A DNA stretch of 64,000 nt from positions 3,391 through 67,390 of the forward strand of contig CAYNWK010000002.1 in NCBI GenBank assembly GCA_964400875.1. The letters run 5' to 3'. A program made the translations under genes and the position numbers. The notes beneath the pieces are model-generated. The model was not told the DNA's origin. It was given only the letters and a program-made list of their open reading frames with translations, and did no database searches. Positions within the stretch are counted from its first letter, which is position 1. Every line of letters begins with the position of its first letter. Source of the stretch: an uncultured Anaerolineaceae bacterium. GTDB lineage: Bacteria; Chloroflexota; Anaerolineae; Anaerolineales; UBA4823. Of the stretch, positions 2,671 to 41,540 are shown piece by piece.

Positions 2671-3513
2671 TCATCGCCTGATCCAGTCAATTAGTTGGCT
2701 CGCCGAAGATGTTATCGCCGCCAGGCTTATTGACCGCCTCAACCATAGCCGGGCGCCCAGCGGCAGCCGGGCGTAAAATACCCTGCGGAAGAGAGCTTTA
2801 AACACCAGCCACGAAAACCAGGACCCCCCTTCGCGCCGGTGTACGCGGATCATCTCCGGCCAGCAACGGTCATCGGCTGCGACGGACTTGGCTTCGCCGT
2901 GCAACCGGAAGTTCGCCCAGGGACGAGGATAGTACTTCAACGGCGCAACCTGGGACAGCCGCACCCAGAGATCGTAATCCATGGCAAAGAAGAAGCTGGG
3001 ATCCAGCGGTCCAACCCGGCGCCACAAATCAGCCCGGAAGAAGGCGGTTTGCTGGGGGATATGTACATAGCCGCGGCGCAGACGGTGGTAGTCCGTTTGC
3101 CGCGCCGGGAATTCCCCGATCACCCGGCCGCGCTCGTCGATCAGGTGCGCGTCCCCGTACACCATCCCGATCTCGGGGTGCGACTCGAGGTATTCGACGG
3201 CTTCAGAGACCGCCCTCGGAAGATAAGTGTCATCGGAATTCAACCAGGCTAAAATTTCGCCGCCCGCCATCGCGAATCCTTTGTTGATCGCTTCGGTCTG
3301 GCCGCGATCGGGTTCGGAAACCCACCCGGCTAAATGCGGCGCATAGCGCCGGATGATCTCCAGGCTGCCGTCGGTAGAGCCGCCATCCACAATCCGGTAT
3401 TCGATGCGCGGGTAATCTTGTTCCAAAACGGAACAAATGGTTTCTTCCAAGAACTGCGCCTGGTTGTACGACGGGGTCACGATGGAAACCAGCGGCCGGA
3501 TTCGTTCGCTCAC
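2671..3513 (-). CDS. Family 2 glycosyltransferase
   Basis: [26 protein letters not shown]...VDGGSTDGS...NSDD (GT-A fold, DxD-type). GTG at 3513 overlaps the upstream stop as GTGA. The ORF track starts at TTG 3519. Confidence 0.85.
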   Translation of the reverse strand: MSERIRPLVSIVTPSYNQAQFLEETICSVLEQDYPRIEYRIVDGGSTDGSLEIIRRYAPHLAGWVSEPDRGQTEAINKGFAMAGGEILAWLNSDDTYLPRAVSEAVEYLESHPEIGMVYGDAHLIDERGRVIGEFPARQTDYHRLRRGYVHIPQQTAFFRADLWRRVGPLDPSFFFAMDYDLWVRLSQVAPLKYYPRPWANFRLHGEAKSVAADDRCWPEMIRVHRREGGSWFSWLVFKALFRRVFYARLPLGARLWLRRSISLAAITSSASQLIDWIRR

Positions 3514-4457
3514 AGCCAATCCTCGTCACGATAAAACTGCGCGGCGACCTCTCCGGTCAGCTGCCGCAGCCTATCGATCTCCGTCTGGCTCAAGCGGCGC
3601 TGCCAATTCTTGAGATTGGCCCGGCTGTCCACGTGGACGGAATGCACCTTGCGGGGAGAAAGTTCCTTCGGGTTGCCGGCTGCGCTCGATTCAAGAATCG
3701 CGCTTTCCACACCAGGCGTGAACGGCAAACCCAGGGCAGCATATAGGTTTTGATAACCTGCGACAGGCTCTTTGGAGAGGTCCTCGTGGCGGATGACGAT
3801 GGTTTCCGGACAATTCATCTGCAGTTCACCGACAAAACGGTAAATCATATTCCATAGGAGCGCGCTCTGCGCGACGATATCCTCCAGATGTTCCAAAATT
3901 TGCTCCATTTGTTCCCGATAGGGTTCCAGGCGGTCGCGCATCAAGAGAGGCTGCTCCAGAAAATCATCGAAGTCGAAGGACCAATCAAGGCGCATCAGGC
4001 TGCTGGTAAACGCTGCAGGATGCCGGACTACGATCACCACTTTGCAGCCCAGAGCCTTTATAAACCAGGGAGCAGAAAACACCGCAAATGGGTCTTTCAG
4101 CAGAGCCCGCTGCCCTCTGAACTGCCCGAGCGTAAAAGTCGCCCAGTCCCGCGCCATCCGCAGGCAATCTTTAAGCGAGCGCAGCGAACCGAGCTCCGCC
4201 CAAAGACGATAGCGAAAGCGGAGGGTATCCTTCAATGCTGGCAAATACAGGGCCTGGTTATCCGTGCAGATATACGTATACCAGCGCTCCACCGGGGCGA
4301 GCATAACGCCTGGACGATGGTGCACGTTGAGCGGCTCGCTGATATAGCCAACTTCTGGACTGGAAGCCAGCATTTTTCCCACCCAGGTAGTGCCGCTGCG
4401 ATGAGCGCCGGTAACCAGGATCGGCTTGCCTCGCTTTTCGGAGGTCGACGCAGGCAT
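3510..4457 (-). CDS. Sulfotransferase (PAPS-dependent)
   Basis: 5'-PSB loop GAHRSGTTWVGK and 3'-PB-like VVRHPAAFTSS. ATG at 4457 overlaps the upstream stop (ATGA), so the first 8 codons of the ORF track were trimmed. Confidence 0.75.
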   Translation of the reverse strand: MPASTSEKRGKPILVTGAHRSGTTWVGKMLASSPEVGYISEPLNVHHRPGVMLAPVERWYTYICTDNQALYLPALKDTLRFRYRLWAELGSLRSLKDCLRMARDWATFTLGQFRGQRALLKDPFAVFSAPWFIKALGCKVVIVVRHPAAFTSSLMRLDWSFDFDDFLEQPLLMRDRLEPYREQMEQILEHLEDIVAQSALLWNMIYRFVGELQMNCPETIVIRHEDLSKEPVAGYQNLYAALGLPFTPGVESAILESSAAGNPKELSPRKVHSVHVDSRANLKNWQRRLSQTEIDRLRQLTGEVAAQFYRDEDWL

Positions 4458-5449
4458 CACTGCAAGCAAAGGCCTGGCCAATGCCCCAGCCCGGGTAAAT
4501 TGAGCGACTCAACGGCTGCGCGCTGTTTTCGCCCCCCTACCCGTCGGAAATACCAACTTCCCAGGCTCGCTCCGCCTACCAGGCTGAGCGCTGCATAGGC
4601 CATACGGTGCCAGTGCTTGAGGGCGTAGCCGGGATCCCGGGTCAAAGCCCTCCCATAAGCTTGCAAAGCTGCGCCGGGTTCACCGCCATCCAGCAGATAA
4701 CGTCCAACCAGCCGGTAAGCGCCGGCTTCGCAGTAAGCCTGGTTGGCCTCGACCAGCGGCCCTAACTCTGGATCGGAGCGGATCCAAGCCAACAACCGGC
4801 GGGTCTCGGTGCTGAAACCCTCAGCCTGGGCGATGTTCTTGGCGCCCGGGTGGTGGCGCGCCGCCGCCCAGACCGCCGGGATGTGCACGAACGGGCTGTG
4901 TTCGGCTATGCGCAACCATAGGTGGTGATCCAGCATAAAATGATAGCTGGCATCCAGCGTCCCGGCAGTTTCAAGAGCCGCACGGCGCATGAACACGGCT
5001 GGCTGGCAGATGATGCGGAAACCCAGTAAATCGATCAACCCCCAGTTCGGGAACCTCAGGGCATTGAGCAGCCTGCCTCGCGCATCGATGGTGACAGCAT
5101 CCGCATATACCATCCCGGCCTGCGGATTGGCGCTCAAAGCGGCCACCGCGCTGGAGACCGCTCCGGGAAGATAGAGATCGTCGGAATTCAACCAGGCGAC
5201 GATCTCTCCACGGGCGCGCGCCAGGCCCTTGTTGATCGCCTCAGCCTGGCCTGCATCCGCCTCGGAGACCCACCAGGACAGCCGGGGGGCATGTTCCCGG
5301 ATAATTTCGACGCTGCCGTCCGTCGAGCCGCCGTCGACAACGATATATTCGATCGACGGGTAATCCTGCCCCAGCACTGATTGGAGCGTATAGGCCAGGA
5401 ACTCTGCCTGGTTATAGGACGGCGTTACTATGGAGACCAGGGGTGTCAT
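4457..5449 (-). CDS. Family 2 glycosyltransferase, paralogue of 2671-3513
   Basis: [26 protein letters not shown]...VDGGSTDGS...NSDD. The N-terminal ~100 aa align closely with the neighbouring GT2. Confidence 0.85.
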
Positions 5450-5464
5450 TAACGGGGGTCGGCC

Positions 5465-39691: not shown

Positions 39692-39696
39692 CGGAC

Positions 39697-40548
39697 TTAC
39701 ACCATATCCGCGAAGCTGCGTTCCATACGGCGGAAGTAAATCAGCCCGCTGATCAGCAAGAGCATGGCAATCAGGGCGGAAACTGCAACGACCGGACCCG
39801 GTTGGTTTGCGCTGCCAAACAGCGCCCAACGAAAACCTTCCACCACGCCAACCATGGGATTGAGCGCGTAAAGCACTCGCCAGCGTTCCGGTACCTCATT
39901 TGCGGAGTAAACGATTGGCGTCAAATAAAACCAGAACTGGGTCAGGAACGGGAGGATATAACCCACATCCCGGTAAATCACGTTCAAGGCTGACAACCAC
40001 AAGCCAACGCCCAGCGCGGTAACGAGGGTCAACAGCAAGAACAGGGGCAGCGCCCATACTGCAGCCGTCGGTACGATATGGTAATACCACATCAAGGCGA
40101 GGAGCACGGAGAAGGCGATCACAAAATCTACCACCCCGGATAAGATAGAAGAGATCGGGATCACCAACCGGGGGAAATATACCTTCGTTATCATATTGCG
40201 GTTGATCACCAGCGAGCGCCCGGCGTCGGAGAGCGCCTTCGAAAAGAGCCCCCAAGGCAGCAGGGCGGCGTAGGAAAATACCGGATAAGGGACCTCACCG
40301 GACGAAACGCCTAACAGCCCGCCAAAAAAGACGCTGAAGACCACCATTGACAACACAGGCTGCAGGATGGCCCAGGCGGCGCCCAGCAGGGTCTGCTTGT
40401 AGCGCACCTTGATATCGCGCCAGGTGAGGAAGTAGATCAGTTCCCGATACAGCCAAAGATCCCGCAGGTTAATCGAACTCCAGCCGCGCGAGGGCCGCAG
40501 GATGATCACTTCTTCGCCGGAACCGGGGATGAGAGAAGTCTCGCTCAT
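39697..40548 (-). CDS. wzm: ABC-2 type polysaccharide exporter permease (Wzm/TagG/KpsM type)
   Basis: Six-helix ABC-2 pattern. WRDIKVRYKQTLLGAAWAILQP motif. ATG 40548 overlaps the fcl stop (ATGA). Confidence 0.8.
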   Translation of the reverse strand: MSETSLIPGSGEEVIILRPSRGWSSINLRDLWLYRELIYFLTWRDIKVRYKQTLLGAAWAILQPVLSMVVFSVFFGGLLGVSSGEVPYPVFSYAALLPWGLFSKALSDAGRSLVINRNMITKVYFPRLVIPISSILSGVVDFVIAFSVLLALMWYYHIVPTAAVWALPLFLLLTLVTALGVGLWLSALNVIYRDVGYILPFLTQFWFYLTPIVYSANEVPERWRVLYALNPMVGVVEGFRWALFGSANQPGPVVAVSALIAMLLLISGLIYFRRMERSFADMV

Positions 40549-41540
40549 CAGCTGGCCTTTTCCTTTTGGAGCGACGACCGGTACCACTCGATGGTCCTGC
40601 GCAAACCACCCTCGAACGGCATTTGGGCGCGAAAGCCGAAGTATTCCCAGGCACGGGAGGTATCCAAAGCCCGGCGCGGTTGGCCGTTCGGCTTGCTGGC
40701 GTCCCACACCAGGCGGCCTTCGAACCCGGTCAGCCGGGCGATCAACTCGGCCAGCTCTCGAATGCTGATCTCCATCCCGGATCCCAGATTGACAGGTTCA
40801 CTGCCGTTATATCTCTCGGCGGCTAAGAGGATGCCTTCGGCGGCGTCCTCGACGTAGAGGAATTCACGAGTGGGCGATCCATCCCCCCAGACCACCACTT
40901 CCTCATGGCCGGCTTGCTGGGCTTCGATGCACTTGCGGATCAGCGCCGGGATGACATGGGAGGTCTTCAAGTCGAAGTTATCGCGAGGGCCGTATAAGTT
41001 GACCGGCAGTAAGTAAATGGCGTTGTAGCCGTATTGCGCTCGGTAGGATTGGGCTTGCACCAGCAGCATCTTCTTCGCCAGTCCGTATGGCGCGTTCGTC
41101 TCTTCGGGATAACCATCCCACAAATTCTCTTCTCGGAACGGCACCGGGGTGAACTTGGGGTACGCGCAGATCGAACCCAGAGCGACGAACTTGCCCACCC
41201 CACGCTGCCAGGCTGCGTGCATCAATGGGACGCCCATCATCAAGTTATCGTAAAAGAACTCTGCCGGGCGCGCCCGGTTGGCGCCAATGCCCCCCGCCAG
41301 GGCTGCCAGGTGTATCAAGATCATATCGCTCAGATTGCCATGACCACCGTGGGCAACGTCATCCAAAAGCTTCTGTATGGCGGCGCGATCGCGCAGATCG
41401 TAGTCTTTGTACCGAGGGACGATCACTTCGCCGGCGCCGCGTTCGGATAATTTCTCGACCACGTAAGAGCCCAGGAATCCCTTGCCGCCGGTGACGACGA
41501 CACGCTTATCCTGCCAAAAATTTACGTCCATTTCAACCAT
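40548..41540 (-). CDS. fcl: GDP-L-fucose synthase (GDP-4-keto-6-deoxymannose 3,5-epimerase/4-reductase)
   Basis: [47 protein letters not shown]. Confidence 0.8.

Follow-up and report, generated by a model that had tools for sequence, protein, structure and literature searches.

A conserved Anaerolineae gene cluster for a putative sulfated, ulosonic-acid-type surface glycan

Many uncultured Anaerolineae (Chloroflexota) seem to share a large gene cluster for a sulfated cell-surface glycan, as our analysis of one such locus suggests. The locus lies in a stretch of 64,000 nucleotides from an uncultured Anaerolineaceae bacterium (assembly GCA_964400875.1, contig CAYNWK010000002.1, positions 3,391 to 67,390 of the forward strand), which we call the window and within which all coordinates below are counted. 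It encodes a fusion of ATP sulfurylase and adenosine 5'-phosphosulfate (APS) kinase, i.e. a 3'-phosphoadenosine 5'-phosphosulfate (PAPS) synthase (Sat-CysC), together with four sulfotransferases (ST1-ST4), two NeuB-type synthases and an ABC exporter of the Wzm/Wzt type. We consider it fairly probable that these genes belong to a class-conserved supercluster with a built-in sulfation module, the product being a sulfated ulosonic-acid-type glycan exported by Wzm/Wzt. The locus is no one-off, and Anaerolineae probably coat themselves with a sulfated acidic glycan.

Sulfotransferases and PAPS synthase of the locus

The sulfotransferase genes appear to encode four soluble PAPS-type enzymes of three lineages, i.e. 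ST1, the tandem pair ST2/ST3, and ST4. A preliminary description of this DNA had assigned the four open reading frames (ORFs) to the sulfotransferases from short motifs, and the assignment stands: all four score above the curated Pfam thresholds and every quoted motif string was found in the translations. ST1 (3510..4481 as the longest ORF, with the likely start ATG at 4457) matches Sulfotransfer_3 (E 2e-14, 54.8 bits against a cutoff of 27) and Sulfotransfer_1 (E 2e-10), and its own sequence, read singly, holds both PAPS-binding motifs, HRSGTTW and VRHPAAFTSS. ST2 (9748..10614) and ST3 (10630..11544) are SULT-like tandem paralogues scoring 32.9 and 31.5 bits with Sulfotransfer_1 (cutoff 22). 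ST4 (25929..26966) resembles the tyrosylprotein sulfotransferases (TPSTs) and NoeE; it matches Sulfotransfer_3 with E 2e-23 and 84.1 bits (cutoff 27), and its NoeE match is weak at 38.9 bits, far under the cutoff of 500.

On alignment, the PAPS-binding residues are present and invariant in the ST2, ST3 and ST4 families. GHARSGTT, RDGRD..SH and KG..G.W..FT do not vary across 22 ST4 homologues, and the same holds for PKSG[ST]HL, RDPRD..SH and S.TFR.G..G.W across 21 homologues of ST2/ST3 and also in 14 locus-derived sequences, the ST2 family itself having the invariants PKSGTHL, RDPRDVVVS and S.TFR.G..G.W. The families are large, with at least 4274 database homologues for ST3 (typically 287 residues long) and at least 4044 for ST4. 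These are named merely 'sulfotransferase', 'NodH' or 'hypothetical', some ST4 homologues carrying the Joint Genome Institute (JGI) annotation 'LPS sulfotransferase NodH', and those labelled by organism are metagenome-assembled genomes (MAGs) of Anaerolineae/Chloroflexota. For ST1 we collected 539 metagenome relatives, the best 80 of which are 56-63% identical to it.

The predicted structures place ST3 and ST4 in the sulfotransferase fold. The AlphaFold (AF2) models have a mean pLDDT of 88.7 for ST3 and 79.7 for ST4, and for each of them the top 50 Foldseek matches in the PDB are all PAPS sulfotransferases, mostly cytosolic SULT-type enzymes for ST3 and with TPSTs leading for ST4. All these matches have probability 1.00, and since the TM-score is only ~0.5 at 15-20% identity, they say little about the acceptor. 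The catalytic base of sulfotransferases is His in SULTs and Glu in TPST and 3-OST. In our alignments the ST2 clade keeps the His of 'GHL' and the ST3 clade has Tyr at the same place, while in ST4 the place of the TPST Glu is taken by an invariant Q76/H78. Neither signal peptides nor membrane segments at the N-terminus were found in ST1-ST4, which is consistent with sulfation in the cytoplasm preceding ABC export.

The gene at 16870..18669 was described earlier as an ATP-sulfurylase/APS-kinase fusion, and we found all three expected domains, i.e. PUA_2 (E 7.5e-50), ATP-sulfurylase (3.4e-82) and APS_kinase (4.5e-65). The motifs QxRNPxHxxH and GRDHAG, the kinase P-loop and LDGD are intact in the translation. 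Such an intact enzyme should turn sulfate and ATP into PAPS, and taken together the sulfotransferases and the PAPS synthase look functional.

Conservation of the cluster across Anaerolineae

We surveyed Sat-CysC in a GTDB collection with one genome per species and searched the flanks (10 kb on either side) of the best 80 loci with the proteins of the window. At least 579 relatives were found, and the best 80 are 70-80% identical to the query and come nearly all from MAGs of Anaerolineae/Anaerolineales. In 43 species genomes the contig extends at least 5 kb upstream and at least 6 kb downstream of Sat-CysC. ST4 and NeuB_XI, the first of the NeuB-type synthases, are both present in 31 of these 43 well-flanked loci, one of them in 4 and neither in 8. 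Around Sat-CysC, the oxidoreductase GFO stands immediately upstream in 47 of 61 loci and ST4 is found in 45 of 61; downstream, the short-chain dehydrogenase SDR_b and the cytidylyltransferase CTP_b each occur in 42 of 53 loci, and NeuB_XI and a KpsC/S-like protein each in 40 of 53. The ST4 orthologues in the syntenic loci are 53-64% identical to ours.

The same gene order recurs on both sides of Sat-CysC. It runs PseB, RmlD-like reductase, NeuB_2, GT4, CTP_c, unk297, GT2_d, ST4, GFO and Sat-CysC, and continues with SDR_b, CTP_b, NeuB_XI, KpsC/S-like, ST3/ST2, GT2_c, CTP_a and 2HADH. Long metagenome contigs with ST1 relatives have the order KpsC/S-like, ST3/ST2, GT2_c, CTP_a, 2HADH, SDR_a, DUF115, GT2_b, ST1, GT2_a, GH43 and GT-C. 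As the order in the Sat-CysC flanks continues on the ST1 contigs, one conserved supercluster takes in the PAPS synthase, ST1-ST4 and both NeuB modules. The clustering is not a matter of chance since dozens of other genomes and contigs have the same neighbourhoods. Complete or nearly complete genomes bearing the cluster include CP070764.1, CAWCPR010000001.1 and JAOSJQ010000001.1.

The preliminary description had called the sulfation system dedicated, and the finding that Sat-CysC keeps its synteny with sulfotransferase and NeuB genes in many Anaerolineae genomes backs this claim. PAPS synthesis is genetically tied to glycan assembly because the neighbourhood of Sat-CysC, ST4 and NeuB_XI is conserved. 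The evidence on Sat-CysC leans towards a role in sulfation, given its intact kinase domain and its place among sulfotransferase and glycan genes in most species.

Some loci depart from this pattern. In the cultured Bellilinea caldifistulae GOMI-1 (locus L047) Sat-CysC does not adjoin NeuB or sulfotransferase genes; upstream of it are genes for an AMP-binding enzyme, an asparagine-synthase-like enzyme and an NAD-synthase-like enzyme, and downstream genes for an O-acyltransferase (Acyl_transf_3), two BNR-repeat proteins and Wzm/Wzt. The Anaerolineae MAG JAFGFI01 has two copies of Sat-CysC (L066 and L069), both outside the NeuB/sulfotransferase context. No cysH or sulfite reductase gene was found beside Sat-CysC in the two non-syntenic loci scanned (L047 and L063). 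A MAG labelled Candidatus Sumerlaeota (L025) has the same order of Sat-CysC, SDR and CTP genes at 78% identity, for which mis-binning or transfer is possible.

Putative ulosonic-acid modules and proposed chain assembly and export

The genes are packed like an operon. All core genes are on the minus strand, as is every substantial ORF between 93 and ~56,000, and within the block of roughly 40 kb most neighbours overlap or are separated by less than 50 bp, so the co-directional and often overlapping gene string reported earlier is real. Profile scans also recovered the two NeuB synthases, three cytidylyltransferases, DUF115 protein, GT2 and GT4 enzymes, two methyltransferases and Wzm/Wzt that had been named from the sequence. 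Recent horizontal acquisition of the locus was considered and rejected, the base composition being even throughout (GC content 0.56-0.62). Neither regulatory RNAs nor tRNAs were detected by Rfam and ARAGORN, and promoter and terminator scans of the locus gave nothing better than shuffled sequence.

NeuB_XI (13277..15199) is a NeuB-family synthase fused to a xylose-isomerase-like TIM barrel (NeuB E 2e-87, SAF, AP_endonuc_2 E 2e-29), and NeuB_2 (32590..33657) is a second member of the family (NeuB E 1e-70, SAF). Their NeuB scores in Pfam, 292.9 and 238.2 bits, are far above the cutoff of 22.1. Both are under the equivalog cutoffs for N-acetylneuraminate synthase (TIGR03569; 360.2 for NeuB_XI and 268.3 for NeuB_2 against 399.65) and for pseudaminic acid synthase (TIGR03586; 257.8 and 245.8 against 340.25). 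The architecture of NeuB_XI is common to more than 100 listed clusters (P0121-P0240) at 78-85% identity. This conservation, ~80% overall and far above that of the sulfotransferases (~60-65%), points to strong constraint. The closest solved relative of its TIM-barrel domain is the uncharacterised protein MJ1311.

We infer three modules from the enzymes encoded around these synthases. Module one would consist of NeuB_XI, the PseF-like cytidylyltransferase CTP_b (15276..16034; CTP_transf_3 E 1e-21, PseF 165 bits against 205.7), the PtmA-like SDR_b (16019..16864; adh_short_C2 E 1e-50, with PRK09186 and PtmA matches under cutoff) and the Gfo/Idh/MocA oxidoreductase GFO (18940..19998; GFO_IDH_MocA domains). 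Module two would combine NeuB_2 with the inverting UDP-GlcNAc 4,6-dehydratase PseB (34646..35650; TIGR03589, 499 bits against 407.75), an RmlD-like 4-reductase (33726..34796; RmlD_sub_bind E 1e-57, rmlD 177.5 bits against 224) and CTP_c (30648..31445; CTP_transf_3 E 2e-30), a cytidylyltransferase with a KdsB-like N-terminus and KdsB-family matches under the cutoffs. The third module would hold CTP_a (8116..8787), a CMP-sugar synthetase family member (CTP_transf_3 E 5.5e-31, with weak PseF and KdsB matches under cutoffs), the D-2-hydroxyacid dehydrogenase family protein 2HADH (7157..8119; 2-Hacid_dh_C E 1e-58, under every NCBIfam equivalog cutoff), the short-chain dehydrogenase SDR_a (6319..7128; adh_short_C2 E 3e-53, its orthologues in the ST1 module being 72-82% identical) and the DUF115 protein. 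Two further NAD-dependent epimerases/reductases are encoded at 40548..42617 (Epimerase E 4e-52 and 3e-38), the first being GDP-L-fucose-synthase-like (Fcl 300.8 bits against 500).

A canonical pseudaminic or legionaminic acid pathway was rejected. Although PseB is genuine, Pfam and NCBIfam found no aminotransferase, N-acetyltransferase or PseG-type hydrolase among the scanned ORFs of the window, and the set of six pseudaminic enzymes (PseB, PseC, PseH, PseG, PseI and PseF) is incomplete, with an RmlD-like reductase following PseB instead. The product of module two is probably not pseudaminic acid because an aminotransferase and an acetyltransferase are missing; a 7-hydroxy 9-deoxy analogue is more likely.

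Three proteins are candidates for transferring CMP-activated ulosonic acids. One is the MptE-like/DUF115 protein (5465..6322; PF01973, 40.5 bits against 34.6), which is kept in the ST1 module and gave no NCBIfam match and no significant match to PDB sequences. Another is a KpsC/KpsS-like and BFO_1060-like GT-B protein (11516..13243), whose Capsule_synth match (34.4 bits against 20) is partial and covers profile positions 138-267 only; it also matches the NCBIfam family BFO_1060 (E 1e-10, 41 bits against 200), has the HP motif 'AHPDE', and matches KpsC in the PDB with E 0.17, which is not significant alone. The third (36708..38360) is a paralogue of the second with 25% identity over 387 residues by BLASTP (E 3e-21), an 'IHPGE' motif and a BFO_1060 match of E 1.7e-4 and 20.8 bits (cutoff 200). 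The earlier description of two KpsC/KpsS-like proteins is to be softened: only the one at 11516..13243 reaches Capsule_synth, and with partial coverage; the one at 36708..38360 has no Pfam match, though it is a paralogue of the other. The BFO_1060/Tanf_01245 family contains the Pse/Leg transferases of the Tannerella forsythia O-glycan, which have been validated by knock-out (PMC5420450). Our two proteins weakly resemble BFO_1060 and the KpsC/KpsS beta-Kdo transferases in their C-terminal GT-B region, 'HP' motif and NeuB/CMP-synthetase neighbours; they differ in being ~200 residues longer than the KpsC domain and in scoring far under the BFO_1060 cutoff. A perfect 18-bp tandem repeat (11570-11628, 3.3 copies) encodes SDNTIR three times near the C-terminus of the protein at 11516..13243; it adjoins the start of ST3, just upstream of it, and could be a length-variable tract.

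The remaining glycosyltransferases include four of the GT2 family. GT2_a (2671..3519; Glycos_transf_2 E 2e-27) is the neighbour of an ST1 orthologue in 57 of 80 metagenome loci and GT2_b (4457..5449; E 2.5e-27) is syntenic with ST1, while GT2_c is encoded at 8784..9893 (E 2.4e-26). GT2_d (26989..27972; E 1e-14) has a homologue in 37 of the 80 Sat-CysC loci and stands between unk297 and ST4 in the fuller ones, e.g. L012 and L014. A GT4 enzyme occupies 31491..32585 (listed as the ORF 31491-32369; Glycos_transf_1 E 1e-27). Its frame is open upstream and the conserved N-terminal ~70 residues are in frame ahead of the listed start, yet there is no ATG, GTG or TTG. A non-standard start codon, an error in sequencing or decay of the gene could account for this. 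A PMT_2-like GT-C membrane protein with 8 transmembrane-like segments (24361..25959; 30.3 bits against 26.1), two S-adenosylmethionine-dependent methyltransferases, MT_a (28851..29726; Methyltransf_23 E 1e-15) and MT_b (35816..36727; Methyltransf_11 E 2e-15), and the exporter complete the set. The exporter consists of the ATPase Wzt (38405..39829; ABC_tran E 2e-21, 77.3 bits) with a C-terminal glycan-binding domain (Wzt_C, 41.1 bits against 30.4) and the ABC-2 permease Wzm (39697..40707; ABC2_membrane E 4e-20, 72.7 bits).

We propose that the glycan would be built on a lipid acceptor at the cytoplasmic face of the membrane, where the KpsC/S-like and DUF115 transferases would add CMP-activated NeuB-type acids. 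ST1-ST4 would sulfate hydroxyls in the cytoplasm using the locally made PAPS, and methyl groups would be added too. The finished anionic chain would then be recognised by Wzt_C and exported via Wzm/Wzt, after which it might stay lipid-anchored or be moved by one of the neighbouring GT-C enzymes to a protein or wall polymer.

Several other genes lie inside the locus. An optional insert of three genes, found in 4 of 80 loci (L009, L031, L032 and L036), encodes a Tat-exported enzyme of the alkaline-phosphatase superfamily (20028..21590; Pfam Sulfatase E 1e-38, twin-arginine signal SRRDFLK), a small membrane protein with 5 transmembrane-like segments by hydropathy profile and no Pfam match (21613..22149), which travels with both neighbours in the four loci, and a type I phosphodiesterase/nucleotide pyrophosphatase family protein (22136..23971; Phosphodiest E 2e-34). 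The first enzyme was considered as a glycan-editing sulfatase and rejected, since T-T-P-G-A replaces the formylglycine motif C/S-x-P-x-R at the aligned position, TT/TS-P-G being kept in the 4 orthologues, and since the gene occurs in just 4 of 80 loci. By its sequence it is a Thr-nucleophile member of the alkaline-phosphatase superfamily and no classical sulfatase. The insert may attach a phospho-substituent outside the cell or take one off. A Thr/Pro-rich exported protein, possibly a lipoprotein (28004..28792), has a signal-like N-terminus, a T/P-rich linker of ~80 residues and a weak Germane domain; it is kept in two related loci only and is a possible target of O-glycosylation. The conserved 297-residue protein unk297 (29730..30623), with orthologues in 32 loci between CTP_c and GT2_d, has no sequence match in Pfam, NCBIfam or the PDB.

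The flanks are also rich in glycan genes. At 93..2656 Pfam identifies a PMT_2-like GT-C protein and a secreted GH43-family protein, which belong to the conserved block: ST1/GT2_a are followed by GH43 and GT-C on 8-10 metagenome contigs. Beyond the range of the preliminary description, Pfam finds further surface-glycan genes at 43296..56056, i.e. GT-C proteins, LPG_synthase_TM, Gmd, a GT4, a Wzx-type flippase, an epimerase and a UDP-Glc/GDP-Man dehydrogenase. The 837-residue ORF at 43296-45809 overlaps the LPG_synthase_TM gene (45311-46366), and its first ~170 residues appear non-coding; the true start is probably a Met near 45302, giving a protein with 10 transmembrane segments and no family match. 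The GC content falls to 0.50 at 56000-58000, where one gene of Exo_endo_phos and one of CDP-alcohol phosphatidyltransferase type are found. Here the glycan region has its edge, beyond which housekeeping genes follow (Usp, UDG, GNAT, TsaB/TsaE and UvrD).

Alternative readings, known systems and implications

The preliminary description had proposed a heavily sulfated glycan containing ulosonic acids. The sulfotransferases, PAPS synthase, NeuB genes and conserved synteny support the genetic side of this proposal, and several points weigh against it. The glycan itself, its sulfated residues and its lipid or protein anchor are what we infer from the genes. The nearest solved relatives of ST4 are protein-tyrosine sulfotransferases with non-glycan substrates, those of ST3 are mostly cytosolic small-molecule sulfotransferases, and the ST3 clade lacks a His aligning to the catalytic His of SULTs. 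The scanned ORFs of the window contain no domains of CysQ (the PAP phosphatase) or of a sulfate permease or transporter, and Sat-CysC could also feed assimilation. No ORF of the window matches Bac_transf or Glycos_transf_4, i.e. an initiating phosphoglycosyltransferase, so initiation may be encoded elsewhere or be KpsS-like on lipid. The modules vary between genomes and the block holds a second type of exporter, Wzx, besides Wzm/Wzt.

Because of this second exporter and the variable modules, more than one product is possible. The locus could be a patchwork of neighbouring glycan pathways, two or three in number, every one of them equipped with an ulosonic module and a sulfotransferase of its own (PseB, NeuB_2 and ST4; NeuB_XI and ST3/ST2; CTP_a, DUF115 and ST1), which share PAPS and do not make a single multiply sulfated glycan. 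We regard this as a real possibility, if a somewhat doubtful one. The modules are separable, ST4 and NeuB_XI occurring without ST2/ST3 within reach in 9 of 53 loci and variant orders being found in L007, L017, L018 and L078; moreover the window encodes three cytidylyltransferases, three candidate transferases and several GT-C proteins in addition to Wzm/Wzt and the flippase. Against it, the modules keep their order and strand with overlapping genes wherever the contig is long enough, and the 40-kb core has a single ABC exporter.

Two other hypotheses concern the sulfation genes themselves. The sulfotransferases could act on another acceptor, i.e. protein tyrosines, a lipid or small metabolite, or a nucleotide-sugar on which sulfate is a transient leaving group ('cryptic' sulfation). 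The best sequence and structure matches of ST4 are indeed the tyrosylprotein sulfotransferases, ST3 matches mostly cytosolic small-molecule SULTs, enzymes that activate leaving groups are among the matches (retinol dehydratase and the CurM sulfotransferase domain for ST4, sorghum LGS1 for ST3), and the locus encodes an exported Thr/Pro-rich protein. We nevertheless find this unlikely: TM-scores of ~0.5 at such low identity leave the acceptor unreadable from the structures, ST4 also matches the Nod-factor sulfotransferase NoeE weakly, glycosyltransferase or NeuB-pathway genes flank each sulfotransferase in many genomes, and cryptic activation would need fewer than four sulfotransferases. It is more improbable still that Sat-CysC serves housekeeping sulfate activation and stands near glycan genes for historical reasons, the sulfotransferases drawing on general PAPS and the word 'dedicated' being an over-reading. 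Such a role would fit the protein's belonging to one orthologous family of high conservation (70-80% identity) and its occurrence away from the NeuB/sulfotransferase context in 8 of the 43 well-flanked loci, that of the cultured Bellilinea caldifistulae among them. It fits less well that organisms reducing APS directly need no APS-kinase domain, that neither of the two scanned loci has a cysH or sulfite-reductase neighbour, that one MAG has two copies, and that the synteny with a sulfotransferase extends over 31 of the 43 species with ST4 at 53-64% identity. A class-conserved cluster for a sulfated surface glycan is the reading we prefer.

Loci of the same logic have been described, contrary to the earlier statement that no characterised bacterial locus with this combination was known. 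Cobetia marina KMM 1449 and Vibrio sp. KMM 8419 have sulfated capsules of proven structure, and their clusters hold PAPS genes, sulfotransferases, glycosyltransferases and an ABC exporter, with kpsSC present in Cobetia and kpsS noted in Vibrio (PMC11766843, PMC11641403). The authors of the Vibrio study regard PAPS and sulfotransferase genes within a polysaccharide cluster as a hallmark of sulfated polysaccharide synthesis. Our locus likewise unites PAPS genes, sulfotransferases (one to three in those strains), glycosyltransferases and genes for nucleotide sugars with an ABC exporter and with proteins of the KpsS/KpsC type, which here are candidates. Those strains are Gammaproteobacteria that export by KpsMTED over two membranes, whereas ours belongs to the Chloroflexota and has Wzm/Wzt with Wzt_C. 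They have a CysDN-type sulfurylase with CysC separate or fused to CysN, plus cysQ and a sulfate permease, where here Sat is fused to CysC; they make rhamnose/mannose/glucose repeats and lack NeuB-type synthases, where here there are two such synthases and four sulfotransferases; and their clusters are distributed at strain level, in contrast to the class-wide conservation of the Anaerolineae locus.

Other systems share parts of this design. Rhizobia have a second, dedicated PAPS-generating system, NodPQ, beside the carbohydrate sulfotransferases NodH and NoeE. The dedicated PAPS system and the weak match of ST4 to NoeE recall this sulfation of Nod factors and surface polysaccharides, but NodPQ is of the CysDN/CysC type, its acceptor is a lipo-chitooligosaccharide signal rather than an envelope polymer, and ulosonic acids are not involved. 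Escherichia coli O9a and Geobacillus stearothermophilus have ABC-transporter-dependent pathways for O-antigen or S-layer glycans with carbohydrate-binding domains on Wzt. Wzm with a Wzt_C-bearing Wzt, methyltransferases that might cap the chain and a proposed cytoplasmic completion before export are shared with these pathways; unlike them, our window has no WecA- or WbaP-type initiator and no WbdD-like terminator. The S-layer N-glycan of Halorubrum sp. PV6 joins a sulfated sugar with a nonulosonic acid in one prokaryotic glycan: it contains sulfated glucuronic acid and, at its terminus, 5-N-formyl-legionaminic acid, encoded in a region of ~67 kb (PMC6137143). It is built by archaeal N-glycosylation, in which dolichol is the carrier, the transfer is AglB-type and the diamino legionaminic pathway is complete. 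The general kind of system is therefore already known, and what differs here is the phylum, the Sat-CysC fusion, the NeuB modules with their unique fusion, the four sulfotransferases and the class-wide conservation.

Anaerolineae are among the most abundant bacteria of sediments, salt marshes and anaerobic digesters, and to our knowledge nothing is known of their surface glycans. Our literature search found no description of a sulfated glycan of Anaerolineae/Chloroflexi or of this cluster, and in published work Anaerolineae figure as organisms that consume sulfated polymers. The cluster predicts a strongly anionic sulfated polymer of the envelope or matrix in a phylum that until now has been discussed solely for breaking down sulfated polysaccharides. 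It also opens to biochemical study three large uncharacterised sulfotransferase families, each with thousands of members, besides a NeuB/TIM-barrel fusion and proteins that may be new ulosonic-acid transferases. In granular sludge, sulfated and nonulosonic-acid-containing polymers have been measured and the sulfotransferases for them have not been found; the cluster gives candidate genes for these polymers.

The locus may also explain a puzzle in the sulfur cycle. In salt-marsh Anaerolineae MAGs, sat was present and transcribed in 53 of 55 and complete dissimilatory sulfate reduction was found in 1 of 55, and the authors considered the presence of sat surprising (PMC11748557). A simple reading of the synteny is that this sat provides the PAPS with which glycans are sulfated; the 'sat' found in nearly all Anaerolineae would then serve sulfation and not sulfate respiration, which may account for the difference between 53 and 1. 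If so, caution is needed in counting the gene as sulfur-cycling potential.

We speculate, as a tentative and rather unlikely extension, that Anaerolineae make a membrane-anchored glycan whose NeuB-type nonulosonic acids are themselves O-sulfated by the SULT-like ST2/ST3, encoded beside a candidate ulosonic-acid transferase. The candidate acids would be the 7-hydroxy non-diamino 9-deoxy acid made by PseB, the 4-reductase and NeuB_2, or the product of NeuB_XI. If true, bacteria would have their first sulfated sialic-acid-like sugar, the ubiquitous and transcribed 'sat' of Anaerolineae would belong to glycan sulfation and not to sulfur cycling, and Anaerolineae would be a source of those sulfated and sialylated polymers of anaerobic granular sludge that are so far unexplained.

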